From Thermoplasmata archaeon (lineage in GTDB: Archaea > Thermoplasmatota > Thermoplasmata > Lutacidiplasmatales > UBA184), in NCBI GenBank assembly GCA_035945215.1, contig DASZAJ010000002.1, positions 34,129 through 98,128 of the forward strand: a DNA stretch of 64,000 bases, read 5' to 3'. The notes below the pieces were generated by a model. It saw only the letters and a program-made list of their open reading frames with translations, searched no databases and was not told where the DNA came from. Each line of letters opens with the position of its first letter. The first letter of the stretch is position 1. Shown piece by piece: positions 4,901-57,141 of this stretch. Both the position numbers and the translations under genes were made by a program.

Positions 4901-7900
4901 TGGGACCAGGAACGTGGCGCTGAACCCCCCCGTCGAGTCCGAGGTGAACGTCGCCTGGGGGGCCGAGGAGCACGAGCTTCCGCCGGTGCAGGTGAGGGCC
5001 TGGCTGCCGCCCCAATTCATCGAGACGGTCGAGCTGGCCGCGAACCCCGTGCCCGTGACGGTGACCGTGGTTCCAACCGCTCCGCCGGTCGGAGCGAGCG
5101 TGATCTTGGAGGTCACCGTGAACAAGGCGCTCGCGGTACTCGCGTTCACCGACGAGTCGGTGCCGTGGAACGTGTAGGTACCCGCGGCGGTCGCGGGGAC
5201 CGTGAAGAAGCTCCCGCACGCGGCGGGGGTGAAGCTCCCCGACGAGTTCGCGCTCAGGGTGCAGACGAACGTGATCGAGGTCCACGATACGCTGACGGTG
5301 ACCGAGGCGGAGGCGCCGTAACCCGATCCGCTCACCGAGACGACCGTTCCGACGGGCCCGCTCGTCGGGGATACGGTGAGCGTCGGCTCGACGGTGAAGA
5401 TCGTGCTCGCCGCGTTGGTGCCGTCGGAGCCGGTGACGGAGTGGCCCCCTTGGAAGGCGATCGGTACGGTGAACGAGCAGCTGACATCGCCGACCGCGTT
5501 GCTCGTCGCGGAGCACAGCGTCCCGCTCGGCTTCCAGCTCATCGTCACACTCGCGGTTCCGGCAAAGCCGGTCCCCGTGGCGGTCACCGAGGTTCCCACC
5601 TGGCCGCTCGTGGGGACGATGGAGACCTCGGGAAGGATCGAGAAAGTGGCCGTGGCGGAGTTGGCGGTCGGGGACGCCGAGTCGGTACCCGTCACGGTAT
5701 GGCTGCCGGCGACGGCGTGCGGCGCGGTGAAGCTGCACGAGAAGCTGCCGAAGGAGTTCGTGGTGGCGGTGCACAAGGTCGCGCCGCCGGGCGCCCAACT
5801 GACCGTCACCGCGGAAGCGGCCGCGAACCCGAAGCCGGTCGCGGTGATCGCGGTGGTCCCGACCACGCCGCTCGTGGTGCCCAGCGTGAGGCTTGGGAGC
5901 ACCTTCAGCGTGGCACTCGCCGTGTTGGAGGCACTGTCCGTCGCGGTGGTCGTATAGGTCCCGGCGGGAGTTTGTGGGATCGAGAAGACCGCGCAGGAGA
6001 AGTCACCGGTCGACGCGACCGAGCCCGTGCAGCTGAAGGTGGTCGGTCCGGCGAAGGTGATGCTGGCGGTGATCGACGCGCCGGAGGCGAACCCGGTCGC
6101 GGCCCAGCCATAGGCGGTCCCTTCGGTCCCGCTCGTGGGCGAGATCGAAAGGGCCGGCTCCACGGTAAAGCTCGAGGTCGCTGAGCTTGGCGAACCGCTG
6201 GACTCGGTTCCGGTGATCGTGTACGTGCCTTGGGCCGTGTGGGCGACCGTGAAGGTGCACGACCACTGCCCGAGGGCGGAGACCACGGATCCCACGGTGC
6301 AGCTGATCGTGCTCGCCGCCGACCAGGTGACCGTGACCGAGGCCCCGGTCGAGTACCCGTTCCCGCTGACGGTAGCCGAACTGCCGACGATGCCGCTCGT
6401 GGGGGAAACCGATTCACTGGGCCCGACGGTGAACGGAGCGGAAGCGGTGTTGCTTGCGGCATCCGTCGCCGTGACGCTGTGGGCTCCCTGATCGGCGGTC
6501 GGGACGGTGAACGAACAGCTGAAACCGCCGGTGGCGCCCGTCGTGGCCGTGCACAGCGTGCCCGCCCCGGACGGACTCCAAGTCACGGTGGTGCTCGACG
6601 ACGCCGCGAACCCGGTTCCGGTGATCGTGGAGGAGGACCCGACCGGCCCGCTCGTCGGCGACAGGGAGACCGCGCTCGTCACGCTGAACATCGTCGCGGC
6701 CGAGTTGGTCGAGCTGTCGGTGGCGGTCACGGTGTGGCTCCCCGCGACGGCGGCCGGAACGGTGAAGCTGCACGAGAAGTCGCCCGCCGCGCTGGTGGTC
6801 GCCGAACACAGGGACGCCGCCCCCGGGGACCAGGTGACGGCCGTCAGCGAACCGCCGGCGAAGCCGTGACCCGACACGGTGACACTGGTGCCGACCGGAC
6901 CGGAGGTCGGGGAGAGTTGGATCGTCGAGACGACGGTGAAGGTGGCGCTCGCGGTGTTGGAGGAATGGTCGGTCGCACTGACCGTATGAGCTCCGATCAC
7001 CGCCGATGGCACTGTGAACGTGCAGGTGAAGGTACCGTTCGCGTGGGTCGTGATGGCCCCCTGGGTGCACGTCATGGCGGCCGCGTCGAAGGAGATCGTG
7101 GTAGTGGAGCTGCCCGCGAAGCCGGTCCCGGTGGCGGTCAGGGTGCTGCCGACCGGTCCACTCGAGGCGGATAGCGCCAGGCTGGGATTCACGGTGAAGG
7201 AAGCCGCGGCGGAGTTCGACGAACCGTCGGTCCCCGTGACGGTGTGGACTCCCTGAACGTCCGACGGGACCTGGAAGGTGCAGCTGAACGACCCCGAGCT
7301 GTTCGAGGTCGCCGTGCAGACCGTGATCGAGCCGGGCGACCAGGTCACCGTGACCGAGGACGAGGCCGCAAACCCACTGCCCGACGCGGTCGCGCTCGAC
7401 CCGACCACGCCGCTGGAGGCCGAGAGCGTCACCTGCGACGAGACGGTAAAAGTCGCCGTGTTGAAGTTGGAAGGAATGGCATTGTCGGCCGCGGTCACCG
7501 TATGCGTGCCCTGGACGGCGGGGGGGACCAGGAAGGAGCAGGAGAAGCCGCCGCCCGAACTGGTCGTTGCCGAGCACAACGCGACGGCGTTGGGCGACCA
7601 CGTGACGGCGACCGAAGCCGTGGCGGCGAACGAGGTTCCCGTGACGGTCACGCTCGTGCCGACGGGGCCGCTCGAGGTGGACAGGGAGATGCTGCAACCG
7701 CTGTTGCAGGTCGCCAGCGGCCGGGCCGGCGCGGCTCCGCCCGACGGAGCGCTCGTCGTCCAGTACGTTGCCAAGGCGGTATTCGGGGGGGAAGCCAGGT
7801 CGGTGGCGGTGACCGAGTGGGGCCCCACGGCACCCGTGGGCACGACGATCGGACAGACGAACGAGCCGTCCGCCGCTGTCGACGCCGTCTGGCCGGCGCT

Positions 7901-9580
7901 GCAAAGGATCGGGCTGTTGTCCCAAGCGATCTGGACGGGCGTGGAACCGGCGAACCCGCCCCCGATGAGATCGATGATCGTGCCGGCCGGGCCGCTACCC
8001 GGGGCCAGGGTAAGGCTCGGAGTGACCAGGAGCGAGATACTCGGGGCTCCGCCGGAACCCGCGAGCGTCGTCAGGTCCCGAACATTCAGTTGGTGCGACC
8101 CGGCGGTGGCCGCTGGGACCACGAACAGGCAGGAAAATCCGCCATTGGCGGTTACCGTGGTGCACAGCGACTTCGACGATGTGTCCCAGCCCACAGCGAC
8201 CTTCGAGTTCTCCCAGAATCCCGTACCGGTAAGGACCACGTAGGCTCCCACCGCAGCGGTCGCCGAAGAGAGGGCCAGAGCCGGCGCGACGTCGACCGCC
8301 CCGGAGGGAATGGCCAGGACCCCGTTCGACTCGATGGCGAGTGTGTGCGGTCCGCGCACCGTGGCCGGGACGGTGATCGCGCATTCGACAGAGCCGGTCG
8401 GCGTGGTCTTCAGGGTGACCGACGAACAGGCGATCGTCGCCCAATCCCACAGGACCGAGTACGCGGCGTTCGCCGGGAGGCCCTCCGCCGAAACCGAGAT
8501 CGTGTCGCCGACCTGGGCGTTTTGGGTGGACAGCGAGGCGCTCGGCCCGACCGAGACGGTGGCGCCGACCGAGATCGTCGAACCGCCGCCCAGGATCTGG
8601 GCTATGATGGGGTGCGCGCCGTTCGAAAGGGTCGGGACAGTGAAACCACACCGGAACGTTCCGGACGCCGAGGCGACGCCCGCGCATGCCGCACCCCCGG
8701 CGGCCCACTGAATCTCGACGTTGGCGAAAGCGGGGAACCCGGTTCCGGTGGCAATTTCGGATTCGCCGACGGTGGCGGTCGCCTGGGATAGGACGACGCT
8801 CGGAGTGACGGTGAAGCCGACCCTCACCGAGGCGGAGGCGGAACCCGCGCCCCCCGAGTAGGAAAGGAAGTGCTGACCCTCCGGTGAGGAGGGCACGAGG
8901 AATGAACAGGTTAGGCTTCCCAGGCGGTCGGAGACCGTGGTGCAAACCGACCCGATCAGGGGCCATTCGAGTGAGATGCGTTCGAACGCGGGGAACCCCG
9001 TGCCTATGGCGTTCGCGCGCGTCCCGACGCTCCCTGAGTGCGAAGAAAGACCTAGTGTCGGGGTAACCACGAACGTCGCGCTAGAGGTATCGGCGATCCT
9101 CGCCGAATCGGCGACCGTCACGGCGTGCGGTCCAGCGGGGCCAGCCGGGACTTTCAATGAGCAACTGACCACCCCTGCTGCGCTTGTGAGGGGAGAAAGG
9201 CTTGAACACGGAATGGCCGCTCCATCCCAGGCGACTGTGAAGGCCGAACTCGGGAGAAACCCGGAACCCGTGACGACAAGTGAGGTCCCGACCCCCCCTT
9301 GGCTCAAGAACAAGGACAAGCCGGGGTTCAGAGCGGGGTTCGACCGCAGGCTCGGCGAACCGGCAAGGGCGCCATGCGAGGCCCCCTCCGGTCCTATCGC
9401 GTGATTAGAGATCCCAAGCGTCCCCCCGGAAGCTCCGAAGAGTGTAGACAAAACCATCGCGAGTAGGACAGTCCAGATCACGAGGGTCATCCCTCGGGGG
9501 CGAGGTTGTCGCGATGCAGACTCGCTGACAAAATGCTCGTTCGGCCGGCTGGGAGACTCCGGGCTCAAGGAGGAGGGCAT
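1..9580 (-). CDS. Giant exported repeat protein, >3,190 aa, 3' end beyond the left edge: signal peptide, about 28 Ig/IPT-like Cys-pair repeats, then PKD and PKD-like repeats
   Basis: Hand translation from ATG 9580 (alternative ATG 9490) gives MPSSLSPE...MTLVIWTVLLAMVLSTLFGASGG (hydrophobic leader), then repeats such as GSFTCTFTVP. The same frame at 58 reads DVGQTVVFSAVSTLGSGS. Every sampled segment is in this frame and the track lists no closed ORF in it, consistent with an ORF that has no stop inside the window. Confidence 0.9.
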   Translation of the reverse strand, partial: MPSSLSPESPSRPNEHFVSESASRQPRPRGMTLVIWTVLLAMVLSTLFGASGGTLGISNHAIGPEGASHGALAGSPSLRSNPALNPGLSLFLSQGGVGTSLVVTGSGFLPSSAFTVAWDGAAIPCSSLSPLTSAAGVVSCSLKVPAGPAGPHAVTVADSARIADTSSATFVVTPTLGLSSHSGSVGTRANAIGTGFPAFERISLEWPLIGSVCTTVSDRLGSLTCSFLVPSSPEGQHFLSYSGGAGSASASVRVGFTVTPSVVLSQATATVGESEIATGTGFPAFANVEIQWAAGGAACAGVASASGTFRCGFTVPTLSNGAHPIIAQILGGGSTISVGATVSVGPSASLSTQNAQVGDTISVSAEGLPANAAYSVLWDWATIACSSVTLKTTPTGSVECAITVPATVRGPHTLAIESNGVLAIPSGAVDVAPALALSSATAAVGAYVVLTGTGFWENSKVAVGWDTSSKSLCTTVTANGGFSCLFVVPAATAGSHQLNVRDLTTLAGSGGAPSISLLVTPSLTLAPGSGPAGTIIDLIGGGFAGSTPVQIAWDNSPILCSAGQTASTAADGSFVCPIVVPTGAVGPHSVTATDLASPPNTALATYWTTSAPSGGAAPARPLATCNSGCSISLSTSSGPVGTSVTVTGTSFAATASVAVTWSPNAVALCSATTSSGGGFSCSFLVPPAVQGTHTVTAADNAIPSNFNTATFTVSSQVTLSASSGVVGSSATASGSGFAASSSVTVTWSPGSITVCTATSNSSGSFSCTFQVPSDVQGVHTVTGTDGSSNSAAASFTVNPSLALSASSGPVGSTLTATGTGFAGSSTTTISFDAAAMTCTQGAITTHANGTFTCTFTVPSAVIGAHTVSATDHSSNTASATFTVVSTIQLSPTSGPVGTSVTVSGHGFAGGSLTAVTWSPGAASLCSATTSAAGDFSCSFTVPAAVAGSHTVTATDSSTNSAATMFSVTSAVSLSPTSGPVGSSSTITGTGFAASSSTTVTWSPSGAGTLCTATTGATGGFSCSFTVPTADQGAHSVTATDAASNTASAPFTVGPSESVSPTSGIVGSSATVSGNGYSTGASVTVTWSAASTISCTVGSVVSALGQWSCTFTVAHTAQGTYTITGTESSGSPSSATSSFTVEPALSISPTSGTEGTAYGWAATGFASGASITASITFAGPTTFSCTGSVASTGDFSCAVFSIPQTPAGTYTTTATDSASNTASATLKVLPSLTLGTTSGVVGTTAITATGFGFAAASAVTVSWAPGGATLCTATTNSFGSFSCSFTAPHAVAGSHTVTGTDSASPTANSATATFSILPEVSIVPTSGQVGTSVTATGTGFAGTASVTMSWKPSGTLCSATSNAVGDVSCSFTVPIAFQGGHSVTGSDGTNAASTIFTVEPTLTVSPTSGPVGTVVSVSGSGYGASASVTVSVSWTSITFVCTLSANSSGSFTPAACGSFFTVPATAAGTYTFHGTDSSVNASTASALFTVTSKITLAPTGGAVGTTVTVTGTGFAASSTVSMNWGGSQALTCTGGSSCSSAPQATFTSDSTGGFSATFLVPPSTAGGHLVRATDASSNTASATFVTSSSLVITAPGSAMGAVGSSVSVLGNGFASAAAVSVSFASVSAVTVCTGSTNLTGAFACSFTVPAGVFGAHAITATDAASNTASATFSIVANLTISPTSGIVGSSATVTGTGYAGASTITLTWDGSTTLSCTSGSLTTSSAGGFGCTFTVPAAFAGAHTVAATDASSHTASTSFTVVPHVVLSPTSGVVGSTFVAFMTGYGSSLLIFPSPDTWDGSTIVGGSASSPATGSYDLTFTVPPSVHGAHTLVAADGSGNSASATFTVDASLALAPSSGIVGSSATATGTGYAGSAAVTVTWSPGGATLCTASSSTVGSFTCTFTVPHAVTGAHTVTGTDASSNSATATFTVAPSLSLSPTGGIVGTSVVVTGAGFPSGASFSVTFSGGAVSCTPTGTVGAVGDWSCSITVPSAPIGANVVTGSAGAQTASATFTVAPSISLSVSVGPVATPVTASGHGYAGSSAVTVSWSPGGATLCTSTTNPTGDFSCSFVVPAAVNGAHTVTGTDAASDLATTSFTVTAKLVLSPTSGIVGSSTTASGTGFAGTSNVGLAWTAPNIGLACTSGSLVTGATGSFTCAFQVPPAVAGPHSVTATDASSNSASSTFTIVSSLALAPAVGVVGSTSTAIGNGFGGALVTSVTWAPGALALCSATTNATGFFSCSFTVPAAVHGGHLVTATDTSSNSATATYLVGSNLVLTPSAGIVGSSTTATGTGFIGSSSVTLTWSGPTTSLTCTSGSLSTSATGGFTCTFTVPSAPIGGHAVTAVDPATNTASAVFTVGPFIIVTPTSGEARGYGIAGTTVTVDGQGFTAGDTVTVTWTPGTLCSGTADALGTFSCSSVIPATPAAKYTLTGTDAHSNSATAGLTVVPTIIAQPDDLMVGGVIWVNGTGFFASQTVNVVWTPVGSSGSSICPSTSTLANGSFTCGTFTIPREAAGPVLITATDTGLQASFNYTVTTDLTVSLALTSPASEPPTDVGVTVTFTATAMLGFTPYASYAWSFGDGATATTASPTASHAYATASGPSGYTATVTVTDNVGSTATSSMTVVVNPDPTVTTPTASRTSADVGQSVTFSTIESGGTAGGLVFSWNGLPAGCSGTTTRTVTCASLGTAGTYSISATVTDGPYSTIGGSYTSSTLLFVVDADPTVSLSPSAASADVGQLVNFGAAAAGGSGGFTFAWSGLPTGCPIAPTTASITCTVSASGSFSVSVTVTDSNGGSGSSGATSFSVFSDPALASPSPSRASADVGQAVTFTDLPTSSGSGGLLWAWAGLPTGCSGSSGTVTCNPSAAGTYSITAQVTDSNGFVATSAPLSFTVFADPATSVVPSVASADIGQPVTFGSTTVGGSGGVTIAWTGLPAGCPASPATASVACASVTTSGTYLVSETVTDSNGMSASSNVVTFNVFPDPTVTVSASPVSADVGQTVVFTATAASGSGTYAFAWTGLPAGCPAAPASPDVSCTVTTPAASTVSATVTDSNAKSVTSSPLAFTVFSDPTVSASETRASADVGQLVSFTATAALGSGGFSYSWSGLPSGCSGSTATVSCVAPNSVTSSAAFVVSVHVIDSNGVGTSSGSVTLTVFADPTLSAAASRSSADVGQTVVFSAVSTLGSGSD
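1980..9300 (-). repeat. About 28 tandem, diverged ~87-aa protein repeats (~260-nt period)
   Basis: The motif G-x-F-x-C-x-F-x-V-P recurs near 9150, 8900, 8640, 8370, 8120, 7840, 7530, 7270, 7010, 6760, 6500, 6250, 5980, 5720, 5460, 5190, 4910, 4640, 4380, 4115, 3865, 3610, 3360, 3095, 2845, 2580, 2320 and 2050. Confidence 0.85.
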
Positions 9581-9751: not shown

Positions 9752-11188
9752 ATGTGCCGCGCGCTTGTGCGGGTGGCTCCGTCGATCGTTCTTTCGCGCG
9801 CGGAGGGTCGGGAACTCAACGCATTGTGCACGAGCCCCGGGACCCTTCCGAGATTGGCGCTACGGGCATGGATCGTGCTCCGATCTTCCGAAGGGGTCGA
9901 CAACCGAACTATCGCATCCGAATTCATGGTGGACGAGGCGACGGTGGCGCTCTGGAGACGAAGATTTCTGGTCCATCGAATCGCCGGAATCCTCTCGGAC
10001 GCCCCCCGATCGGGCCGGAAGCCCAGGATTCCCGCTGCCCTCGTTGCCAAGATCGCTGCAGCTCGGAGCGTAGGACCATTCGGGGCGGCGAATACTCCGA
10101 CGAGCCGGGCGGTCGCGCGAGAGATGCGGGTCAGCCAATCCACGGTCGTAAGAATCTGGAAGACCCACGAAGGCCCGACCTCCACCGACGTATCGGTCGA
10201 TGAGGACACCCCCCTTCCCGCTCGGCCCATCCGGGATGTTCGAGGCATCTACCTCTGCGGTGAGGATCGGTGCGTGGTGCTCATCTCCCAGAAGGACGAG
10301 CCCACGTCGGCCATCGAAGCGCGGGACACGGGAACGAGACACTCGCGAGGACCGCTTCCGGTCGAAACCCCCCGTCGTCCCCCTCGGGACCCGTTGGCGG
10401 CGGTTCGTGTGATCTATCGTACCATACTTCCGGAACCCGGGGCTCACGACCGACTGGGGGATTTCCTACTCTTCCTCCGAGGCGTCGAGTTCCACCTCGG
10501 CCCAAATGAGATTGCCCATGTCCTGCTCCAGACGAGCCTTCTCGGGAAGGACGCGACGCTCCTTCGGTGGTTGCGCCGTCGGCCCGGGTTCGTATTGTAC
10601 CTGTCGTCCGCCGGGACGACCCCCAGCCGTCCGAGCTTCGATTTGCCCGATGGCCTCACGACGCAGGGGGTGCGTCCCAGCAGCCTGCGCAGTCTTCCGA
10701 AGCTGATCGACGCCTTCCGGGTCTTTTCGGTGACTTCGGATCGCCATCCGCGCCCATTTGCCTGGACCCTTCCCGAAGTCCCGTCCTCGGCGTCGATCGC
10801 GAGCCATCGCGCTCCGACGCCGCGAGCGGTCTCGGTCACCGCGCATTGGCTGACACCGCCCATCCTCGGGAGCGAGGCGAATACCCTGGGTGGGTCGATC
10901 GGGGCGGAGCCTATCGCGCCGTCCACGTCGATGGCTTTCCTTCCGATTCGGGCGGGCTTGGCGGGAGGGTTCGCGACTCGCCTCGAACCCCCAGCCATTC
11001 CACGGGGTTCCTTGCCTTCGGGCGCACCGATTTCGGAGGCATCGAACGTAACGCCCACCGGTCCTTCGGATGGCCCATCCTCCTCGATCGCGTCCGGGGT
11101 CCCATCGTCCCCAGGGCCCCTGGACGGGCGTCTTCGGAAGGCCCCCCCCGGTTCCCATTCCCCCTCGCCACGAGAAGGGACCGGGTAG
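9752..11188 (+). CDS. IS630-family transposase homologue with intact HTH region, degenerate DDE domain and Pro/Ser-rich tail (probable start GTG 9767)
   Basis: LALRAWIVLRSSEG, TVALWRRRF, DAPRSGRKPRI, DVRGIYL and HPRPFAWT match IS630 blocks. The usual LxxDN reads LLQT and the usual WLNxVE reads SRPSFD. Confidence 0.85.
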   Translation: MCRALVRVAPSIVLSRAEGRELNALCTSPGTLPRLALRAWIVLRSSEGVDNRTIASEFMVDEATVALWRRRFLVHRIAGILSDAPRSGRKPRIPAALVAKIAAARSVGPFGAANTPTSRAVAREMRVSQSTVVRIWKTHEGPTSTDVSVDEDTPLPARPIRDVRGIYLCGEDRCVVLISQKDEPTSAIEARDTGTRHSRGPLPVETPRRPPRDPLAAVRVIYRTILPEPGAHDRLGDFLLFLRGVEFHLGPNEIAHVLLQTSLLGKDATLLRWLRRRPGFVLYLSSAGTTPSRPSFDLPDGLTTQGVRPSSLRSLPKLIDAFRVFSVTSDRHPRPFAWTLPEVPSSASIASHRAPTPRAVSVTAHWLTPPILGSEANTLGGSIGAEPIAPSTSMAFLPIRAGLAGGFATRLEPPAIPRGSLPSGAPISEASNVTPTGPSDGPSSSIASGVPSSPGPLDGRLRKAPPGSHSPSPREGTG

Positions 11189-13459: not shown

Positions 13460-16072
13460 CTACGTCGGTTCGTCCGGAGGTCGCCGGCTGGACCGGCGGG
13501 AAGAGGCCCCTCGGGGGGCCTTCCCCCGCCACAACGACTGCCCGATCCAGATCGCGACGCCGGCCCCCGCCACGGCCGCGAGGATGAGGAGACCGAAACC
13601 TTCCGTCGCGGGCAGGCCGAGCACATCCGAGGAACCTGGCGCCCGGACCGCGTTGGCCCGGAAGTTGACGGTCACCGTGACCGCCGACCCATTGATCAGG
13701 AACGCCCCCTCGCGCGGAGTCGACGTGAATCCGGCGACCGGGGCGACGCTGTACCCGTAGGTCCCGTTGGACAGACCAGGGAAGCGGATCGAACCCGATC
13801 CGCTGGCGGGCTTCCCGTCCAGGGTCACGCTCCACCCAGCCCCCGTCGGCAAACCCTTCTCCTCGAAGATGACCGGGTAGGTCACGGGGACGAAGGCGAC
13901 GGCCTCCAGGAGTGAGACGCCGGCCACGTTGGACGTCCCGAACGCGTTCCCCAGCGGTGTGTAACTCGAGTTCGACGATGCCAGCGTGTAGGTGTAGCTT
14001 CCGTTCGTGAGCGCGAAGCTGATGTTGGCGCCGACGGAGTGGGCGACCGCACCGCCGGTCAGGTTCACCGACCACGCGCCCCCGATCGGCAGGCCCGTTT
14101 CGACGAAGGTAACCGCGAAGGTAACGTCGCTGAACCGCACCGGGACATTGGCGGGCCCGCCGACCACCGCGAACTGGCCCCCCGGCGCGATGAAGCGCGG
14201 ATCCTGGACCGCGATGGAATAACTGTAGGTTCCGTTCGCGATCTGAAGACCCAGATCGGACGTCGCCCCGGCGAGCAGGGGTCCCCCGGTGAGGTTCACC
14301 CACCAGCCGACGCCCGTCGGCAATCCGACCTCCGCGAAGTCGACGGCGTACACGACCTCGGTCCAGGCCACGAGGCGGCTGACCGAAGCTCCGTGGACAT
14401 CGATGCTCCCGGTGAAGTTCGTCGTCGTCCAACCCGCGATCCCGGCGACCCGGAACGGGTACGTCCCATTCCTCTCGAGGAAGTGGATCGAGGCGACCGT
14501 CGGGCCGAGCGAGACACCCCCCAATGTGACCGACCACGCCGTGGACGTCGGGAGTCCCGTCTCCGCGAAATTCACATTGTAGGTGACGGGTACAAAGGTC
14601 AGCGGCGAGGTCACGTCGGTGCCATTGACCGAGACCGTACCGCTGCGAGCGGCGAAGGTCGGATCGCTGGAGGTGACGGTGAAATTGTACACGCCGTCCC
14701 CGGCCCGCACGATCAGCTCGGAGGTGTTCGAGGAGGCGATCGGCTCGCCGGTGACGTTCACCGACCAAACCGTCCCGCTCGGGAGCCCTGATTCGTTGAA
14801 GATGATTCGGTGCCAAGTCGGGAAGAAGCTCACGTTGTTGGACCCGAAATTGACGACGTAGATGTATCCGTTCGCCGGGTCGTAGGCCGTCGCCCAGGGA
14901 TAGGAGCCGGCGGGCACGGAATATAGTACCGAAGTGCCGTCGATCACGCTCACGTTGTTGGACGCGTCGTTGGCGACGTAGACGTAGCCATTGCCGTCGT
15001 TATAGCTCGGGAGCTCGGGTCCGGATCCGACTGGGATCGTCGCGATGACCAGTCGGTCATGGAGCACACTGACGGTCCCGCCCACGGCATTCGCGATGTA
15101 TACGTCGCCCGAGCGAGCATCGTAGACCCCCGAATAGGGGCCGGACCCCACGGGGACCGTGGTGAGCACGGTGGTGTTGTTGAGGATGCTCACCGAGTTG
15201 GCCCCGTAATCGGGTACATAGACCTCCCCGTTCGAGGGGTCGAAGATCGGGGTCTCGGGCTCGCCCGAGACGTTCACGGTGCGGATGAGCTGGGTGCCGT
15301 TGAGGACGCTCACCGTGTTCGAATTGTAATTCGAGACGTAGACCCGGCCCGTGGCGCTGTCGAACGCCAGTCCGTCGGGGCTCATCCCGACCGTGACCGT
15401 CCGAACGAGGCTGGTCCCGTTCAAGATCGACACTGCATTGACGTTGTCGTCGACGACGTAGACGTAGCCGTTCGCCGGGTCATACCCGATCGCGTAGGGA
15501 CCGTATCCGGCCCCGGGCGACCCGACCAGTTTCGTCCGATTGAGCACGCTCACGTTGTTGCTCGCCGAGTTCGCCACGTACACCCATCCGTTCCCCGGGT
15601 CGAAGGTGGCCTGGGCCGGGGAACTCCCGAGGCTCGGCGAGGCGATGACGCGGGAGCCGTTGATGATGCTCAGATTGTTCGAGCCGCCATTGATCACATA
15701 GACCCATCCGTTCGCGGTATCGACGGTGGCGGCAATGGGGGTCATGCCCACGTGGACCGAGGATACGTTCGGGGCGTGGGGGGCCATCGGCGGGACCGTT
15801 CGACCACCCTCGGGAACCGGTCCGGACCGAGGGACCACCGGGGACCCGGCAACCGTCCCAGTGGCATTGCTCGGGGACGTGGTGGGCCCTGAAAGGTCGG
15901 CTGCCGAGTACGGGACGTTCACCGTGGTCCGGTGGGGGCTCACCAATGACAGACTACCGACGTGGAAAGACCCTTCCCCCGGGACCCATCCGTTACTGGG
16001 AAGGAGCAAGGCGAGCGCGACGATCGCGAGCCAAATCGGTACGGCCGGGCGGCCCGGACCGAACGTCAGCAC
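13460..16072 (-). CDS. Surface protein: 8 YVTN/YncE-type propeller repeats, 5 thermopsin-type repeats, C-terminal TM anchor
   Basis: Eight GxxP...DxxNGxVYVxNxxSNxVS repeats; five VxFxExGLPxGxxWxVxL repeats; signal peptide; TM followed by a basic tail; many N-x-S/T sequons. Confidence 0.9.
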   Translation of the reverse strand: MLTFGPGRPAVPIWLAIVALALLLPSNGWVPGEGSFHVGSLSLVSPHRTTVNVPYSAADLSGPTTSPSNATGTVAGSPVVPRSGPVPEGGRTVPPMAPHAPNVSSVHVGMTPIAATVDTANGWVYVINGGSNNLSIINGSRVIASPSLGSSPAQATFDPGNGWVYVANSASNNVSVLNRTKLVGSPGAGYGPYAIGYDPANGYVYVVDDNVNAVSILNGTSLVRTVTVGMSPDGLAFDSATGRVYVSNYNSNTVSVLNGTQLIRTVNVSGEPETPIFDPSNGEVYVPDYGANSVSILNNTTVLTTVPVGSGPYSGVYDARSGDVYIANAVGGTVSVLHDRLVIATIPVGSGPELPSYNDGNGYVYVANDASNNVSVIDGTSVLYSVPAGSYPWATAYDPANGYIYVVNFGSNNVSFFPTWHRIIFNESGLPSGTVWSVNVTGEPIASSNTSELIVRAGDGVYNFTVTSSDPTFAARSGTVSVNGTDVTSPLTFVPVTYNVNFAETGLPTSTAWSVTLGGVSLGPTVASIHFLERNGTYPFRVAGIAGWTTTNFTGSIDVHGASVSRLVAWTEVVYAVDFAEVGLPTGVGWWVNLTGGPLLAGATSDLGLQIANGTYSYSIAVQDPRFIAPGGQFAVVGGPANVPVRFSDVTFAVTFVETGLPIGGAWSVNLTGGAVAHSVGANISFALTNGSYTYTLASSNSSYTPLGNAFGTSNVAGVSLLEAVAFVPVTYPVIFEEKGLPTGAGWSVTLDGKPASGSGSIRFPGLSNGTYGYSVAPVAGFTSTPREGAFLINGSAVTVTVNFRANAVRAPGSSDVLGLPATEGFGLLILAAVAGAGVAIWIGQSLWRGKAPRGASSRRSSRRPPDEPT

Positions 16073-16338: not shown

Positions 16339-17007
16339 TCAACCTTCCCCGAGCCCTTCCGACCGGCCTCTCGCGGCGAGACCGAGTGTGAGTGCGGCAA
16401 TCCCCGACGCGAGGAGGTACACTGGTAGCCCTGTATACGTGGCCGACCACACAGCTGGCGCAATGGTTCGAGCCGGATTCAGGGAACTTCCTGTCCACGG
16501 TCCGATGAGGTACGTCGAGATGCCGACGACCGTTGGGGGCAGGAGGAGGCGCCATCGGTAGCGCCCTTCCCCCGCATCCGTCACCACGACGACCGAGATC
16601 ACCAGGGCGCCGGTGAAAAGGAGCTCAAGAACGAAGGTCCGGACCAGGTCCCCGCCGGCGGGGACCGTCGAACCGAGGTGCGCGCCATCGCCCAGGGCCC
16701 CGAGGACGATCCCGGACGCGGCGAAAGCACCGATGGATTGCGCCCCGATGTAGGGCAGCGCGTCCCGCCGCGGGAAACGACGGCTGATGACCAAGGCGAT
16801 CGTAACGGCGGGATTCAGGTGCGCCCCCGACTGGCGGGCCCATAGGCCGATCGGGATCAGGACGGCCAGGAACCAAGCCGCCGCGATGACCCACAGGGGA
16901 GCGCCACCCAGCCGGCCGGCGAGAACGATCGTCCCGGTCCCGATCGCGACGAGCGTCGCGGTCCCGATCGCTTCCGCGACGAGCCGCCGCCCCAGCGGGA
17001 CGGTCAC
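16339..17007 (-). CDS. MIP-family aquaporin/aquaglyceroporin, probable arsenite channel
   Basis: HLNPAVT and SLNPART motifs. GTG start at 17007 overlaps the arsC stop codon (GTGA). Confidence 0.9.
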   Translation of the reverse strand: MTVPLGRRLVAEAIGTATLVAIGTGTIVLAGRLGGAPLWVIAAAWFLAVLIPIGLWARQSGAHLNPAVTIALVISRRFPRRDALPYIGAQSIGAFAASGIVLGALGDGAHLGSTVPAGGDLVRTFVLELLFTGALVISVVVVTDAGEGRYRWRLLLPPTVVGISTYLIGPWTGSSLNPARTIAPAVWSATYTGLPVYLLASGIAALTLGLAARGRSEGLGEG

Positions 17008-17453
17008 CGGGAGGGCGGGCGTCCCGAGGCCGTTGCGGGAAGGTCCTGCGCCCGTAGTTCGTCTTGGAGGGCCCGAACCTTCTCGCGGATCTGGTCTCGG
17101 ACCCGGCGGAACCCCACGTCGTCGAGCTTGCCGGGATCGTCCAAGGCCCAGTCCCGGACCGGCAGCTGTCGCAGCCGCGCCGGGCAGCTCGCATCGTCGA
17201 GGCAACCCATGGTGACCCGGACTGAAGCCCGGTCCATCAAATCGTCCGACAGCAGCCTTGGGGCGTGCGGAGGCAGTGGCACCCCGATCTCCCGAAGCAT
17301 CGGCCCGGTCCGGGGTCCGGCCTGCGGGGCCGGGCGCGTCCCGGCCGAGGCGGCGGTCCATCCCTTCGGGGGATCCGCGTTGAATATCGCCTCGGCCATC
17401 AACGAACGGCCCGCGTTCTGCACGCAGACGAACAGGACCGTCCGGTCCCCCAT
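17004..17453 (-). CDS. arsC: Arsenate reductase, LMW-PTP (thioredoxin-type) fold
   Basis: FVCVQNAGRSLMAEA P-loop, SAGT, distal TMGCLDDASC cysteine pair, and DW-x-LDDP. Confidence 0.88.
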   Translation of the reverse strand: MGDRTVLFVCVQNAGRSLMAEAIFNADPPKGWTAASAGTRPAPQAGPRTGPMLREIGVPLPPHAPRLLSDDLMDRASVRVTMGCLDDASCPARLRQLPVRDWALDDPGKLDDVGFRRVRDQIREKVRALQDELRAQDLPATASGRPPSR

Positions 17454-17559
17454 CAGCAGCAGTCCTCGCAACAATCCGGGCAGCACGGCGCCGGGCAGCA
17501 GGTCGACGGACTGCAGCACGGCCGCTTCGCCAAGTTCTCGGTCATGTTCGCCTCCACCA

Positions 17560-17574
17560 CTTCAATAGCTGAAG
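17560..17574. promoter_or_regulatory. Inverted repeat, candidate operator between arsC and the HxlR gene
   Basis: cttca-atagc-tgaag in the 152-nt divergent intergenic region. Confidence 0.3.
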
Positions 17575-17605
17575 CGCTCATAAGCATCCGCTACGTACGG
17601 ACAGA

Positions 17606-17932
17606 GTGTCGCAATGCTGCGAGGGGGCGCTCGAGTGCCCGTGCCCGCCGATCGGGCTCATCGACGTGGTCGGCAAGAAATGGGCGGTCTGCGTCGTCTC
17701 CCTGCTCGGTAAGTACGGCCGGGTCCGGTTCGGGCCCATCCAGGAGTGCCTCTCTGGGGTCAGCCCGGCCACCCTCACCTCCACCCTGCGGGCCCTCGAA
17801 CGCTCGCGTCTGCTCCGCCGGGTTCCGGCCGAGGGGCCCCGAGGGCCGGTCAAGGCGTACGAACTGACGCCGAGCGGGCACACCCTGTACGAAAGCCTCC
17901 GCCCGCTGGCCGCCTGGCTCCGCACGACGTGA
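17606..17932 (+). CDS. HxlR-family wHTH regulator with Cys-rich N-terminus
   Basis: CP..LIDVVGKKW, RF..IQ..L.GVSPATLTSTLRALE and YELTPSG match HxlR; N-terminus is MSQCCEGALECPC. Confidence 0.88.
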   Translation: MSQCCEGALECPCPPIGLIDVVGKKWAVCVVSLLGKYGRVRFGPIQECLSGVSPATLTSTLRALERSRLLRRVPAEGPRGPVKAYELTPSGHTLYESLRPLAAWLRTT

Positions 17933-18017: not shown

Positions 18018-20294
18018 TTACTCGGACGGCGGGGGCCGCTGCGCCCTTCGTCGGTAGAGGAGGCCGGCCGCCGCGGCCGCGGCGATCACGACCGCCGCTA
18101 CGATGATCAGCTCGGTTCCCATGGCGGAAGTGGCCAATCCTCCAGGGGTGCTTGAACTGGAAGTGACCGCCACGTTCTGTGCGGACGAGGCGGTCGCCCC
18201 GAGCGCGTCCGTGACCTCCACATGGAGCGGGAACGTCCCGGTCTTCGAGAACGTGAACGAGGCGGAGGTCGAAGACGCACTGCTCCCATCCGGCAGCGTC
18301 CACTTGATCACGTAGGGGGATTTCCCCCCGGTGACGGTGGCCGACCACGTCCCGACGAATCCGGGCGCCGCGCTCTGCGGCCCGTTGATGTTCACCGAGA
18401 GGCCCGGCGCGACCGCGAGCACCACTTGGCCGGTGGCCGTAACGTTCGCCGCATCCTGGACGCTCAGATGGACCGTGTGCGAGCCCGATGTCGTAAACGT
18501 GTGGTCGACGGTCGGGCCCGTCGCGGTGGCCCCGTCGTCGAAGCTCCAGCTATAGGAGAGCGGGGCGATGCCCCCGGCCACGGTGGCGTTCCAGGCGGTC
18601 GACCAACCGACCTCGGCCGGACCGGGCGGCCCGAAGTGGACCGAGGGAGCGGCGAGGACCGCGATGGTCCGGCTCGCGGTCCCGGTTCCCCCGGCCGTGT
18701 CCCGGACCTGCAGCGACGCCGTATAGGTGCCCGGAGCGGAGTACGCGTGGACCGCACTGGCCGCGGCCGAGTGGCCGCCATCGCCGAACGTCCAGGCGAA
18801 ACTCGGCCCGCCGGAGCCCCCTGAGCTCGAGCCCGAGAAAGCGATCCCGACGCCCACGTCCTCCCGGGCCGGGGTCGCCGCGATCGACGCGATCGGACCG
18901 ACCACCACCCGGATCGCCGAGGCGCCGGCCGCCGAGCTCCCCGCACCGTCCGTCACATTGACCGAGATGGTGTACGATCCCGGCGCGCCGTACGAATGGC
19001 TCCCGGGATTCCCACTGGAGGTGGTGCCGTCGCCCCAGCTCCAGGCGAGGGTGCGCGCCGGCTCGCCCCCGACCGCCGCGGCTTGGAAGTTCACGAGCTC
19101 GCCGGCTTCGGCGCTGGCCGGCCCGGTGATGTTGGTAACGGTGAGGGGGAGCGAGAGGACGTCCGTCGTGCTGTACTGGTTCCATCCCCCCGCGACGACG
19201 AAGGAGTGCTCGACCGGATCCCACGCCGAGACCCCGTAAACGTGGAAGTTGGGTTGGCCGGACGCTCCCTGGGCGAGCCAGGCGGTCCCGTTGAACCACC
19301 ACGTGCCCGTGCTCGCGACCTGGGCGCTGGTCATACCGCCGGTGAGGACGATCCGGCCCAGGTCCGTATCGTACCCGACCGCGGGGGCGCAGAGTCCGGT
19401 AGGTCCCCCCGACGGGACGGCGACGTGGGTCCACGAGCCCCCCGTGAAGGTCCAGGTGTCCCCGATGCACTGGGAGAGTCCGTTGAGGCCGCTATACAGG
19501 ACAATGTCGTGGTGGGTCGAGTCGTACGCCAAGGAGGCCCAGGTTCGCACCGGGGGCGGGTTCGTGGCGGCGATCCGGCTCCAGTTTCCGAGCTTGTACA
19601 GCCAAAGGTCATTGAGCAGCGTGCTGCCGGAAGGGTCGGAGTTGTTGTATCCGCCGAAGAGGACCACCCCCCCGAGATCGGGGTCGTAGACCATCGATCC
19701 CGCAAGCCGGGCCGCTGGGGAGGGGTTCAGGTGCGCCGAGGTCCAGGAACCGCCCGAGTAGAACCAGGTAAGGTTCGTGTAGCTGAAGGGGGAATAGGAG
19801 GCGAGGCCGCCGAACATGATGACCCGGTGTTCGAGCGGATCGTAGGCGAGCGCCGGTCCGTCCAGGGGGCCCGGGGACCCCTGGGTCGGTAGAAGGCTCC
19901 AGGCGCCGGCCGAGTAAGCCCAGGTGTCCGCGAGGTTGGTTCCGGCCCAGTTGTCCCCCCCGTAGAACATCATGTACCCGTCCGTAGCGTCCCAGGTCCC
20001 CTCGGTGAACCAGAAGTTGGGGAGCAGGGTCGGACTTTCCGAGGTGATGTTCCACCATCCGGTCACCGGGCCGGTGGCGACGTGGGCCGAGAGCGCGACG
20101 CCGGCGGCGTGGGGGGTTCCCATCGCATGGACCGGGAAGATCCCGGAACCGGCGGATCGACCGGGGGCACCGGCCCCGCCGACGGTAACGGCGTGAAGAG
20201 CGGGCGAGAGCGCCACCAACCCCCCGGGGGCGAGCATGGCGCCGACGATCGCCAAGACGGCCAACATGCCCCGCACGCGCACCGAGATTCTCAC
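18018..20294 (-). CDS. Surface protein: 6 Kelch-like repeats, PKD domains, C-terminal TM anchor
   Basis: Repeats of YD...LFGG...DTW...W; WSWGDG, WTFGDG and WSFDDG PKD motifs; signal peptide; TM followed by RRR. Confidence 0.9.
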   Translation of the reverse strand: MRISVRVRGMLAVLAIVGAMLAPGGLVALSPALHAVTVGGAGAPGRSAGSGIFPVHAMGTPHAAGVALSAHVATGPVTGWWNITSESPTLLPNFWFTEGTWDATDGYMMFYGGDNWAGTNLADTWAYSAGAWSLLPTQGSPGPLDGPALAYDPLEHRVIMFGGLASYSPFSYTNLTWFYSGGSWTSAHLNPSPAARLAGSMVYDPDLGGVVLFGGYNNSDPSGSTLLNDLWLYKLGNWSRIAATNPPPVRTWASLAYDSTHHDIVLYSGLNGLSQCIGDTWTFTGGSWTHVAVPSGGPTGLCAPAVGYDTDLGRIVLTGGMTSAQVASTGTWWFNGTAWLAQGASGQPNFHVYGVSAWDPVEHSFVVAGGWNQYSTTDVLSLPLTVTNITGPASAEAGELVNFQAAAVGGEPARTLAWSWGDGTTSSGNPGSHSYGAPGSYTISVNVTDGAGSSAAGASAIRVVVGPIASIAATPAREDVGVGIAFSGSSSGGSGGPSFAWTFGDGGHSAAASAVHAYSAPGTYTASLQVRDTAGGTGTASRTIAVLAAPSVHFGPPGPAEVGWSTAWNATVAGGIAPLSYSWSFDDGATATGPTVDHTFTTSGSHTVHLSVQDAANVTATGQVVLAVAPGLSVNINGPQSAAPGFVGTWSATVTGGKSPYVIKWTLPDGSSASSTSASFTFSKTGTFPLHVEVTDALGATASSAQNVAVTSSSSTPGGLATSAMGTELIIVAAVVIAAAAAAGLLYRRRAQRPPPSE

Positions 20295-40873: not shown

Positions 40874-41201
40874 GGGTTCCTGGGCGACGGACGCTCGCCT
40901 CGATGATAAATCAAGGCGCAAAATCGACCTCGATGGTTCGCCGGGGCAGCACCGATCCGGTCGGTTCTCCGGGCGATGCTGGTGGACTATCGAGGGGCCC
41001 GGAGGCGAACCCAAGAGCCCAGCCTTCTGGGAGCGGTTCTCGTCTCGACAACTCATCGGACCATTTCCATAGGCGACGGGCTGGCTGAGGCAGCAGGGAA
41101 AGCGATGACCCCTCCCATCGACCTTCATTCGGGGCGCTACGTTATCGCCGGTTCACCGGCCATCACGAAGTTTAAGAAACGGCCCCCCTACGAGAGCTGC
41201 C

Positions 41202-56772: not shown

Positions 56773-56781
56773 GCCTTGGCC

Positions 56782-57141
56782 ATGTGGAACCCAGGACAGG
56801 CGTTCGGCATCCTGGCGGAGCCGACCCGGTTGCGGATCGTGGAGCGATTGCGCGTCGGAGAGCAGAGCGTCGGGGAGCTCGTGAGTCGACTTTCGGTCTG
56901 CGAACCGGGGGTGTCGCGCCATCTCCGAATACTACACCAGGCCGGTTTCGTCCAGGTGCGCGCGGAGGGGCAGAGACACTTCTACTCGCTACGCCGACTT
57001 CCGTTTCAAGAGCTGGACGAATGGGTCCACGAATTCCGGGACGTCGTAGAAGGGCGCCTTGACCGACTTGGCAAGTTGATCGAGCTGGACGCCTCAGCAT
57101 CTCATCCCATTCGTCATCGGCCGGGGAGGACGCAGCCATGA
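56782..57141 (+). CDS. ArsR/SmtB-family regulator
   Basis: LAEPTRLRIVERL, SVGEL and VSRHLRILHQAGFV. Confidence 0.9.
   Translation: MWNPGQAFGILAEPTRLRIVERLRVGEQSVGELVSRLSVCEPGVSRHLRILHQAGFVQVRAEGQRHFYSLRRLPFQELDEWVHEFRDVVEGRLDRLGKLIELDASASHPIRHRPGRTQP

Follow-up and report, generated by a model that had tools for sequence, protein, structure and literature searches.

The 108-aa protein encoded at 17606–17932, which belongs to a specialised HxlR/DUF24 (MarR-like) lineage in Thermoplasmata, is probably a dedicated As(III)-responsive regulator of the divergent operon formed by a Cys-rich micro-ORF, arsC and an aquaglyceroporin gene. More tentatively, although we find it quite plausible, we propose that in soil Thermoplasmata a DUF24-based C11/C13/C29' sensor has replaced ArsR and that a family of poly-Cys peptides accompanies it as an As(III) buffer or chaperone.

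Organization of the locus

The features identified at this locus of the window (the whole 64-kb stretch of DNA that was analysed) are as follows:

16339–17007, minus strand: MIP-family channel (AqpS/GlpF-like), 222 aa, GTG start, PF00230
17004–17453, minus strand: arsC, LMW-PTP-type arsenate reductase by motif and context, 149 aa, PF01451, Cys triad
17453–17545, minus strand: unannotated micro-ORF MTENLAKRPCCSPSTCCPAPCCPDCCEDCC, 30 aa with 10 Cys, GGAGG ribosome-binding site
17551–17555, minus strand: Shine-Dalgarno sequence GGAGG, which precedes the ATG of the micro-ORF by 5 nt
17558–17576: putative operator, 7-5-7 inverted repeat CACTTCA-ATAGC-TGAAGCG, from family conservation
17578–17585: TATA-like element TCATAAGC, from column conservation in 79 loci (consensus TcaTAAgg)
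17591–17599: second non-coding element that is conserved, CTACGTACG
17606–17932, plus strand: HxlR/DUF24 winged-helix regulator, 108 aa, GTG start, PF01638 (52.9 bits)

The regulator gene is thus divergent from the arsC and channel genes, which overlap at 17004–17007 (GTGA), where the GTG start of the channel gene (17007) lies over the TGA of arsC. Several elements of the original prediction are directly seen in the sequence, namely this translational coupling of arsC and the aquaporin gene, a divergent HxlR-family gene with six Cys residues (C4, C5, C11, C13, C29, and C48), and an inverted repeat between the divergent genes, found at 17558–17576. Pfam annotation of the locus also agreed with the prediction that no ArsR is adjacent, none being present within about 10 kb. 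The stretch 17454–17605 had been considered intergenic, and this holds for 17546–17605; the rest is occupied by the minus-strand micro-ORF. Because this conserved 30-codon Cys-rich ORF extends over 17453–17545, the true intergenic region is 60 bp long. In a search for RNA evidence, matches to this region came from soil DNA metagenomes only.

The arsC product matched the LMWPc family (PF01451) with 64.1 bits (cut-off 23.2) and contains a CX5R-S P-loop (C10-X5-R16-S17), C84, C90, and a DWALDDP motif, the triad C10, C84, and C90 being of the thioredoxin type. Its best NCBIfam models, both for arsenate reductase (thioredoxin), scored 59.6 versus 215 (NF010053) and 46.6 versus 174.3 (TIGR02691), and we regard the protein as a divergent relative, assigned by motif and context. 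The longer form called from the GTG at 17519 (171 aa) was rejected, since its N-terminal part translates the Cys codons into a Leu-rich sequence; this extension is not conserved, and arsC homologues, for example those of L045 and L071, begin at the short start, as do those in arsM or ACR3 loci. The channel protein scored 110.2 bits against PF00230 (cut-off 25) and carries 2 NPA motifs (NPAVT and NPART), but falls below the cut-off of TIGR00861 (108.9 versus 171). Its nearest solved structure is E. coli GlpF, and alignment to the W48/G191/F200/R206 filter of GlpF gives W45/T/S/R. We propose this predicted channel as the exit route for As(OH)3.

The regulator is modelled as an HxlR/DUF24 protein

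The match of the regulator to PF01638 (HxlR) covers residues 21–106 and exceeds the cut-off of 20.8 bits. No match to HTH_5 or HTH_20 (PF01022/PF12840) was obtained at E<0.01, and besides HxlR only a sub-threshold match to PadR was found. Therefore, the protein is ArsR-like in its proposed role but lies outside ArsR/SmtB membership. Its 324 homologues are nearly all from Thermoplasmata. The AlphaFold2 (AF2) monomer model (pLDDT 82.4, with only 46–64 for residues 1–20) contains helices at 16–22, 25–37, 42–48, 54–66, and 89–107 and strands at 70–77 and 80–87, and hence reproduces the winged-helix order α1-α2-α3-α4-β-β-α5 of the solved DUF24 structures. The top Foldseek matches of this model were HxlR (7bzd), QsrR (4hqm), YtfH (1yyv), YodB (5hs7), and HypR (4a5m), and a profile search of the PDB returned HxlR-family chains only. 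This indicates that the modelled fold is that of HxlR/DUF24 and not that of ArsR.

Three of the 6 Cys residues, C11, C13, and C29, are invariant in the family (78/78 members), the first 2 within a CPCPP motif. C48 is a Cys in 58 of the 78 members and Ser or Ala in the other 20; it is kept in the main regulator clade but not in one subclade, whose linkage to ars genes nevertheless persists (19 of these 20 adjoin arsC). The CC-x5-CxC motif of the original prediction did not prove to be conserved, since the C4/C5 positions vary among homologues from 0 to 2 Cys and the invariant residues are C11, C13, and C29. The 3 or 4 conserved Cys could in principle be ligands of a structural Zn or of an Fe-S cluster, in which case the protein would be a redox or O2 sensor or would act constitutively, and the number of residues conserved in the main clade (C11, C13, C29, and C48) fits either site. 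We nevertheless regard this as very unlikely because 20 members have Ser or Ala instead of C48, no Fe-S DUF24 protein appears among the structural matches, and the target genes are arsenic-specific.

An N-terminal Cys-Pro preceding helix 1 is conserved in DUF24 proteins (Cys14 in HypR, Cys6 in YodB). The C13-P14 pair of the regulator, invariant in 78/78 members, is in register with C14-P15 of HypR (EC13PPIGLIDVVGKKW in the regulator versus EGC14PVEFTLDVIGGKW in HypR, with D20/D21 and GKKW/GGKW aligned), and this register makes C13 equivalent to Cys14 and C29 to Ile30. HypR (YybR) of B. subtilis, a 2-Cys MarR/DUF24 redox sensor, responds to NaOCl or diamide by forming a disulfide and turns on a nitroreductase gene; in its dimer, Cys14 is at 8–9 Å from Cys49' across the subunits (PMC3351151). 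Ile30, the counterpart of C29, lines the Cys49' pocket, and C48, the last residue of helix 3, falls on Cys49 or beside it. Taken from the sequence register and from a monomer model whose N-terminus is of low confidence, this geometry, in which C13 occupies the position of the redox Cys14 and C29 and C48 that of the opposing-subunit pocket, suggests an intersubunit As(III) site. The 3 invariant Cys residues would be the candidates for its S3 ligand set, their closeness being deduced from HypR.

The same positions could serve a general thiol-stress sensor (for disulfide, electrophile, or oxidant stress) whose switch would be the oxidation or alkylation of Cys residues (such as a C13-C48' or C13-C29' disulfide) and not As(III) coordination, so that the ars genes would be induced within a thiol-stress response. 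The family membership itself, the correspondence of C13 to the conserved redox Cys of DUF24 proteins, and the location of C48 at or next to HypR Cys49 fit such a sensor, as does the fact that the DUF24 members characterised to date respond to oxidants or electrophiles. In addition, a response to diamide can occur in ArsR-regulated ars operons as well (PMC9137774). However, the conserved targets are all arsenic-specific (arsC, arsM, ACR3, and the GlpF-like channel), the locus shows none of the genes for thioredoxin, nitroreductase, dioxygenase, or quinone reductase that are typical of DUF24 regulons, and C48 is dispensable in 20 members, of which 19 adjoin arsC, whereas no member lacks the additional C11 and C29. 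We thus consider a general thiol-stress sensor unlikely and infer, from the structural and genomic data together, that the regulator probably senses As(III).

A conserved candidate operator lies in the predicted shared promoter region

The inverted repeat differs by 1 mismatch from the operator consensus of the family, cCACTTCA-N5-TGAAGtg. It is the only operator-like site in the 64-kb window, where 0.04 would be expected in shuffled sequence. In 70 of the 80 loci analysed (described below), the 90 nt preceding hxlR contain this putative operator with at most 1 mismatch, and only 2 copies were found away from hxlR in 818 kb. One of these 2 is exact and lies directly upstream of arsM in locus L028. 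The palindrome ACTTCA-N5-TGAAGT abuts the TATA-like box, again in 70/80 loci, and the offset between operator and hxlR GTG is constant at +46 in more than 52 loci.

The centre of the TATA-like element is located approximately 24 to 25 nt upstream of the hxlR GTG, and the divergent operon has its GGAGG approximately 26 nt away from this centre; judged by this spacing only, the element may be a core promoter element common to both directions. The regulator mRNA is probably leaderless. Between this box and the hxlR start, the CTACGTACG element consists of the overlapping palindromes TACGTA and CGTACG. The AT-rich spacer of the palindrome was also considered as the TATA box of the ars operon and rejected, because with this spacing transcription would start downstream of the ATG. 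The palindrome itself is situated between the TATA-like box and the ribosome-binding site of the operon, directly upstream of the TATA-like box of hxlR, and its occupancy would therefore block assembly of the pre-initiation complex in both directions.

A Cys-rich micro-ORF precedes arsC

The micro-ORF is the predicted first gene of the operon, with its TGA overlapping the ATG of arsC (TGATG). A Cys-rich ORF is present at this position in 52 of 79 loci, including loci without arsC, and is preceded by an SD-like GAGG or GGAG in 43 of these 52; its stop lies over the arsC start in 38/41 loci. The encoded peptides are 23 to 47 aa long with a median of 36% Cys, contain runs of up to 9 Cys, and share the consensus MPE..CCDPs.CCpGCCddCC. 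Loci with arsM have no micro-ORF; there, arsM occupies the promoter-proximal position instead. A profile search among 5.8 billion proteins, which gave 41 word-sharing candidates, revealed no significant relatives. Of 4 peptides analysed against Pfam, 3 gave no match and the fourth gave a sub-threshold, compositional match to Keratin_B2_2 (18.6 versus 27). The Pfam metallothionein families did not match either, so that the likeness to metallothioneins is compositional only. As in metallothioneins and the metallochaperone ArsD, the peptides are very Cys-rich, contain vicinal Cys pairs that could chelate As(III), and are predicted to be co-expressed with detoxification genes; unlike them, they comprise only 23 to 47 aa and show no sequence homology to either. 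Standard gene callers miss this ORF and mis-extend arsC instead.

HxlR homologues are linked to ars genes in Thermoplasmata

To analyze linkage we used 80 loci from GTDB species-representative genomes (approximately 77 species, 3 genomes contributing 2 loci each), which encode regulator homologues 54% to 85% identical to the window protein. The co-occurrence of HxlR homologues with ars genes implied by the original prediction was borne out, with 71/80 homologues divergent from and adjacent to arsC in a head-to-head arrangement. The architectures were arsC-aqp (49 loci), arsC-ACR3 (9), arsM-arsC-aqp (8), arsC alone (3), arsM-arsC-ACR3 (1), and arsM-arsC (1); hence, aqp follows arsC in 57/80 loci and ACR3 is found instead in 10. 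The partner genes scored above curated cut-offs (ArsM, NF008823, 296.9 versus 263; ACR3, TIGR00832, 391.4 versus 282.8).

No ars genes were found near the remaining 9 of the 80 homologues, most of which keep the micro-ORF. Five such loci with the regulator and micro-ORF pair (L023, L030, L052, L054, and L059), together with a second, distant lineage in which a Cys-triad HxlR is paired with a Cys/Gly-rich micro-ORF and the available flanks contain no ars genes (L112, L113, and L115), would fit a sensor of soft metals (Cd, Cu(I), Hg, or Zn) that acts mainly on the metallothionein-like micro-ORF, with ars genes added to the module in one lineage and co-expressed only incidentally. We consider this improbable, since the ars genes belong to the shared transcription unit in 71/80 loci, the arsM loci lack the micro-ORF and have arsM at the promoter instead, and no metal-efflux ATPase or CDF genes occur in the locus flanks inspected. 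Still, the pairing in the second lineage without ars genes indicates that the ancestral signal may have been a broader thiophilic stress. The closest non-ars-linked relatives retain the CxC, position 29 being Leu or Gln in 27/32 loci, and have no ars neighbours. Among 80 metagenome loci of the wider CxCP-HxlR clade, no ars neighbours were found except in L114 (arsM about 2 kb away) and L087 (a weak LMW-PTP), so that the ars link is specific to the Thermoplasmata branch.

We also considered that the adjacency is non-regulatory and that the ars operon is under the control of a distant ArsR/SmtB protein. A gene of this family is indeed present in the window, the only one, at 56776–57141 and thus 39 kb away (PF01022, 46.5 bits; NF033788, 77 versus 55). 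However, its product has a single Cys, the gene is translationally coupled to an AHSA1/SRPBCC gene and lies in a neighbourhood of MFS transporter genes that lacks ars genes, and both the operator and the linkage of hxlR to ars genes are kept in approximately 77 species and 3 operon types. Linkage and operator conservation of such width are hard to explain without function, and control by a distant ArsR is in our judgement extremely unlikely. No ArsR signature was found in the flanks of the 80 loci. A CitMHS-family protein encoded at 59534–60838, near the distal ArsR gene, was considered as ArsB and rejected for being DASS-like. The idea that an HxlR-type protein and not ArsR is the dedicated ars regulator is thus sustained by the linkage, the 3 architectures, and the operator in the shared promoter, but not in the part that relied on the CC-x5-CxC motif.

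Proposed mechanism and implications

In our model of the HxlR-type protein as As(III)-responsive regulator, a dimer would bind the ACTTCA-N5-TGAAGT palindrome and repress both the operon and its own gene, a polarity that we infer from the operator position. One subunit would provide C11 and C13, where helix 1 begins, as As(III) ligands, and the other would add C29 (helix 2) and, in most members, also C48 (end of helix 3). This pocket would be the inter-subunit pocket of the Cys14-Cys49' disulfide switch of HypR, and As(III) binding would shift the recognition helices so that the DNA is released. Upon derepression, ArsC would reduce As(V) to As(III), As(OH)3 would leave the cell down its gradient through the channel, and the Cys-rich peptide would probably buffer or pass on As(III).

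To our knowledge, all well-characterised arsenic-responsive regulators of ars operons are ArsR/SmtB proteins, and we found no description in the searchable literature of an HxlR/DUF24 protein tied to ars regulation. If correct, our proposal would introduce both a novel class of regulator and a novel protein component for ars operons, would give the first known function for an archaeal HxlR-family protein, and would make a DUF24 thiol switch acting as arsenite sensor a case of convergent evolution of metalloid sensing. The poly-Cys peptide, should it bind As(III), would represent a new class of small proteins in arsenic detoxification, and the regulator could provide an orthogonal As(III)-responsive biosensor part. 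Lutacidiplasmatales and their relatives are common in acidic soils and peat, and ArsR-based searches in the annotation of ars genes from soil metagenomes would miss regulation in these archaea.

Comparison with known systems

The ArsR/SmtB repressors are small dimeric winged-helix proteins encoded next to ars genes that act on a palindromic operator in the promoter and use 3 Cys as As(III) ligands, features that the regulator described here shares or is predicted to share. Examples are ArsR of E. coli R773, ArsR of A. ferrooxidans (Cys95/96/102), and ArsR1 of C. glutamicum (Cys15/16 and Cys55'), whose site combines an N-terminal Cys pair of one subunit with a Cys of the other, as predicted here. 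They differ in family and topology (the regulator matches PF01638 and not PF01022), and the regulator gene has an archaeal promoter context and is probably leaderless.

HypR and the modelled regulator share a fold, and the HypR switch, like the site predicted here, is located where helix 1 of one subunit faces helices 2 and 3 of its partner. In contrast to HypR, the regulator has 2 extra invariant Cys (C11 and C29) and arsenic-specific targets, and its operator position implies repression, whereas some characterised DUF24 members (HxlR and HypR) are activators. YodB, CatR, and QsrR are members of the same family with an N-terminal Cys and short inverted repeats as operators (Foldseek TM-scores 0.62 to 0.73), and the QsrR operator GTATA-N5-TATAC has the N5 spacing of the ars palindrome. 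Unlike the proposed arsenic regulator, they repress genes for quinone and diamide detoxification, have redox enzymes as their regulons, and respond to effectors that alkylate or oxidise a single Cys, and a literature search revealed no link of any of the 3 to ars genes.

The coupling of a reductase to an As(III) exit channel is known from arsR-aqpS-arsC-arsH of Sinorhizobium meliloti and from the aquaglyceroporin-ArsC fusions of actinobacteria. Those systems are under ArsR control and have no poly-Cys leader gene, whereas in the window arsC and the channel gene are coupled translationally through the GTGA overlap. At 222 aa the archaeal channel is also short, and the GlpF alignment gives it a W/T/S/R filter.

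The ars module and its divergent HxlR-family gene

The genes of the module are as follows:
16339-17007, minus strand: MIP channel (aqp; PF00230) with two NPA motifs
17004-17453, minus strand: arsC (PF01451, LMWPc) with a P-loop C10-X5-R16-S17 plus C84 and C90
17453-17545, minus strand: poly-Cys micro-ORF of 30 codons with 10 Cys, encoding MTENLAKRPCCSPSTCCPAPCCPDCCEDCC; conserved ATG at 17545 after GGAGG at 17555-17551
17606-17932, plus strand: hxlR, encoding an HxlR-family protein of 108 amino acids (PF01638, 52.9 bits)

The arsC-aquaporin GTGA overlap and the divergent six-Cys HxlR gene described in the original prediction were borne out by the sequence and the Pfam matches. The arsC TGA is overlapped by the GTG start of the channel gene (GTGA, 17004-17007), and the divergent gene product, which is an HxlR/DUF24 member, carries Cys at positions 4, 5, 11, 13, 29 and 48. 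The ArsC score lies far under the NCBIfam equivalog cut-offs, and we call the protein a putative arsenate reductase from motif and context, not from curated membership. The nearest solved structure to the MIP channel is E. coli GlpF, and the selectivity filter read from the alignment (W45/T/S/R versus W48/G191/F200/R206 in GlpF) would be compatible with a wide pore passing As(OH)3. The window has a G+C content of 66%, and its proteins match Thermoplasmata-labelled metagenome-assembled genomes from soil and peat, Candidatus Lutacidiplasma among them.

Four very large minus-strand proteins of the window (13460-16072, 18018-20294, 29358-32273 and 38024-41128) combine NHL- or Kelch-type beta-propellers with several PKD domains; secretion or membrane anchoring seems likely for at least the first two, and two of the four directly flank the ars module. 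Separately, 1-8711 contains a run of about 14 plus-strand ORFs whose coding signature is strong (GC3 0.84-0.95). None of the 13 scanned matched Pfam, and an HTH_32/HTH_29 transposase-like gene (9752-11188) follows. The run is a possible mobile or viral island.

The hxlR family is linked to arsenic genes

A protein search with the hxlR product returned 324 relatives (90% clusters). Among the 120 relatives listed, identity to the query was 71-100% and most proteins had 108 amino acids; every listed relative with an organism name was from Thermoplasmata. A locus scan with one genome per GTDB species gave 80 loci, in which neighbours were called by tblastn using the window proteins plus one ArsM and one ACR3 drawn from these loci, both above NCBI curated cut-offs (NF008823, 296.9 versus 263, and TIGR00832, 391.4 versus 282.8, respectively). 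Homologues of hxlR, with identity down to 54%, were head-to-head with an ars operon in 71 of the 80 loci, which confirms the co-occurrence with ars genes that had been proposed as a check. The partner genes vary across these 71 loci and are all arsenic-specific.

Genes divergent from hxlR in the 80 loci
arsC-aqp: 49 loci
arsC-ACR3: 9 loci
arsM-arsC-aqp: 8 loci
arsC alone: 3 loci
arsM-arsC-ACR3: 1 locus
arsM-arsC: 1 locus
no ars gene: 9 loci

The family has sharp limits. Of 1.84 billion representatives searched by profile, only 4 clusters fell below 1e-30, and generic HxlR proteins followed. The next-closest clade (metagenome loci L083-L111) keeps a CxCP motif and neighbours ABC transporters and cupins, and no ars genes were found beside it.

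Decayed modules were seen at two loci, one with fused or truncated hxlR, arsC and aqp fragments (L066, 5440-6267) and one retaining only aqp fragments and an hxlR without its N-terminus (L051, 3500-4067). At L114, an arsM gene (1248-2380, minus strand) is preceded by a gene for a protein of 96 amino acids that has a CC...CC motif at its N-terminus and a sequence resembling a SpoVT/AbrB-type domain, and that may be another non-ArsR arsenic regulator; an HxlR with CxC plus C29 lies about 2 kb from this arsM.

An ArsR elsewhere in the window

No ArsR lies adjacent to the module, as originally predicted, nor within about 10 kb of it by Pfam annotation. A scan for the ArsR-type helix signature over the 80 flanks and the window gave a single match, in the window:
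55257-56441, minus strand: MFS transporter
56776-57141, plus strand: ArsR/SmtB regulator (PF01022, 46.5 bits; NF033788, 77 versus 55) with one Cys
57138-57656, plus strand: AHSA1/SRPBCC gene, translationally coupled to the regulator gene (ATGA overlap)
57804-59288, minus strand: MFS transporter

By these profile matches the regulator is a genuine ArsR/SmtB member and could in principle control the ars operon. However, nothing points to this: it has one Cys, is coupled to the AHSA1/SRPBCC gene and sits between MFS transporters (one of DHA2/EmrB type), with no ars genes seen nearby. The HxlR-family protein is very probably dedicated to regulating the ars operon, a strong case for a purely computational one. 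In the full text of papers readable without subscription we found none linking HxlR/DUF24 to ars regulation, and the Lutacidiplasmatales genome paper makes no mention of arsenic, ArsR or HxlR.

A palindrome in the promoter region

The 7-5-7 palindrome at 17558-17576 has no second copy in the 64 kb window. With at most 1 mismatch and within 90 nt upstream of hxlR, it is present in 70 of the 80 loci; outside hxlR upstream regions it occurs only twice in 818 kb, one of these being an exact second copy directly upstream of arsM in L028. In that locus the putative operator is duplicated (5687-5703 and about 5940), one exact copy adjoining arsM and the other hxlR and a poly-Cys ORF, which therefore suggests separate operator-bearing promoters for the regulator, the peptide and arsM-arsC-aqp. 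The arms of the palindrome show no compensatory variation, so it resembles a binding site for a protein more than an RNA hairpin.

Alignment of 79 upstream regions anchored on the repeat gave the consensus cCACTTCA-Ata.c-TGAAGtgc-TcaTAAgg-cgcCgCTACGTACggaca.A-GTG. In more than 52 loci the hxlR GTG occupies position +46 relative to the repeat. This invariant GTG is preceded, at 24-25 nt, by the centre of the AT-rich box TCATAAGC (17578-17585), a spacing that fits an archaeal TATA box for a leaderless hxlR mRNA. On the opposite strand, about 26 nt separate the box from the GGAGG before the first ATG of the operon. The palindrome overlaps the expected position of the BRE (TFB-recognition element) of the hxlR promoter and, in the other-strand reading of the box, would lie between the TATA box and the ars transcript start. 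From this spacing, occupancy of the palindrome would repress both divergent promoters. Between the TATA-like box and the start of hxlR there is a second, strongly conserved element, CTACGTACG (17591-17599), with overlapping palindromes (TACGTA and CGTACG); it is unrelated to the half-sites of the main putative operator.

A poly-Cys micro-ORF opens the operon

The micro-ORF starts 14 nt from the palindrome, and its TGA overlaps the arsC ATG (TGATG). An equivalent ORF of 23-47 amino acids (median 36% Cys) occupies the same position in 52 of 79 loci, with an SD-like sequence in 43 of the 52 and a stop overlapping the arsC start in 38 of the 41 loci that allowed placement of both genes. The consensus is MPE..CCDP(S/T).CC(P)GCC(D/E)DCC, or Cys runs up to nine. 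It stands alone in the arsC-less loci L023, L030, L052, L054 and L059. In arsM loci, arsM occupies its promoter position and ArsM has CC pairs in its N-terminus. A T/C change in the TG(T/C) repeats leaves the encoded residues unaltered in either frame, so the case for the Cys frame rests on the SD and ATG conserved in that frame, the conservation of the MPE start and the copies that stand alone. The gene caller's extension of arsC to GTG 17519, a Leu-rich reading of the micro-ORF codons, was rejected as unconserved among arsC homologues.

The peptide matched no Pfam family, and no relatives were found among 5.8 billion predicted proteins. From its composition and position, our guess is that it buffers or hands over As(III). 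A main rival to an arsenite sensor is a broader soft-metal sensor with the Cys-rich peptide as its primary target, which gains some weight from three loci of a different, lower-GC lineage. In these, an HxlR gene encoding CC.CPCPC and the Cys at position 29 has, upstream on the minus strand, a divergent micro-ORF rich in Cys and Gly (L112, about 3405-3490; L113, about 2240-2345; L115, about 3790-3900; e.g., VKYELSCCGCGCGGGCCGPGCGCGGT...), and no ars genes were seen in their flanks. The pairing of regulator and Cys-rich peptide may thus be older than the ars link.

Conserved cysteines and comparison with known sensors

Across the 78 family members that the loci yielded, C11 and C13 (CPCPP motif) and C29 are invariant. 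Position 48 is Cys in 58 members; the other 20 have Ser or Ala there, and 19 of these still adjoin arsC. The N-terminal C4/C5 pair is represented by zero to two Cys. What is conserved is therefore not the CC-x5-CxC motif of the original proposal but a set of three Cys. In the wider non-ars clade, CxC occurs together with Leu or Gln at residue 29 in 27 of the 32 loci examined.

The AF2 monomer model (pLDDT 82.4, N-terminus poorly defined) has the DUF24 topology, with HxlR, QsrR, YtfH, YodB and HypR as best structural matches, and a profile search of PDB sequences returned HxlR-family chains only. In the B. subtilis redox sensor HypR, the Cys14 peptide is EGC14PVEFTLDVIGGK, Cys14 and Cys49' are 8-9 Å apart across the dimer, and the Cys49' pocket is lined by Trp27', Ile30', Leu31', Ile48' and Ile52' (PMC3351151). 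The window protein reads E10-C11-P12-C13-P14-P15-I-G-L-I-D20-V-V-G-K-K-W26 in this register, which places C13 at HypR Cys14 and C29 (W26+3) at Ile30 of the opposing pocket. Helix 3 spans 42-48 in both proteins and ends with C48, which coincides with Cys49 or is its neighbour. The conserved Cys thus all map to the switch region between the subunits of a known DUF24 sensor, in support of a predicted As(III) site formed by C11 and C13 of one chain and C29' of the other, with or without C48'.

The other main rival is a general thiol-stress switch. The best-supported mechanism is a repressor that leaves the DNA when C11/C13/C29 coordinate As(III) directly, and for the whole chain we consider it somewhat probable. 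The proposed C11/C13/C29' inter-subunit site would be analogous to the site of CgArsR1. The HxlR-family protein would work like an ArsR without being one.
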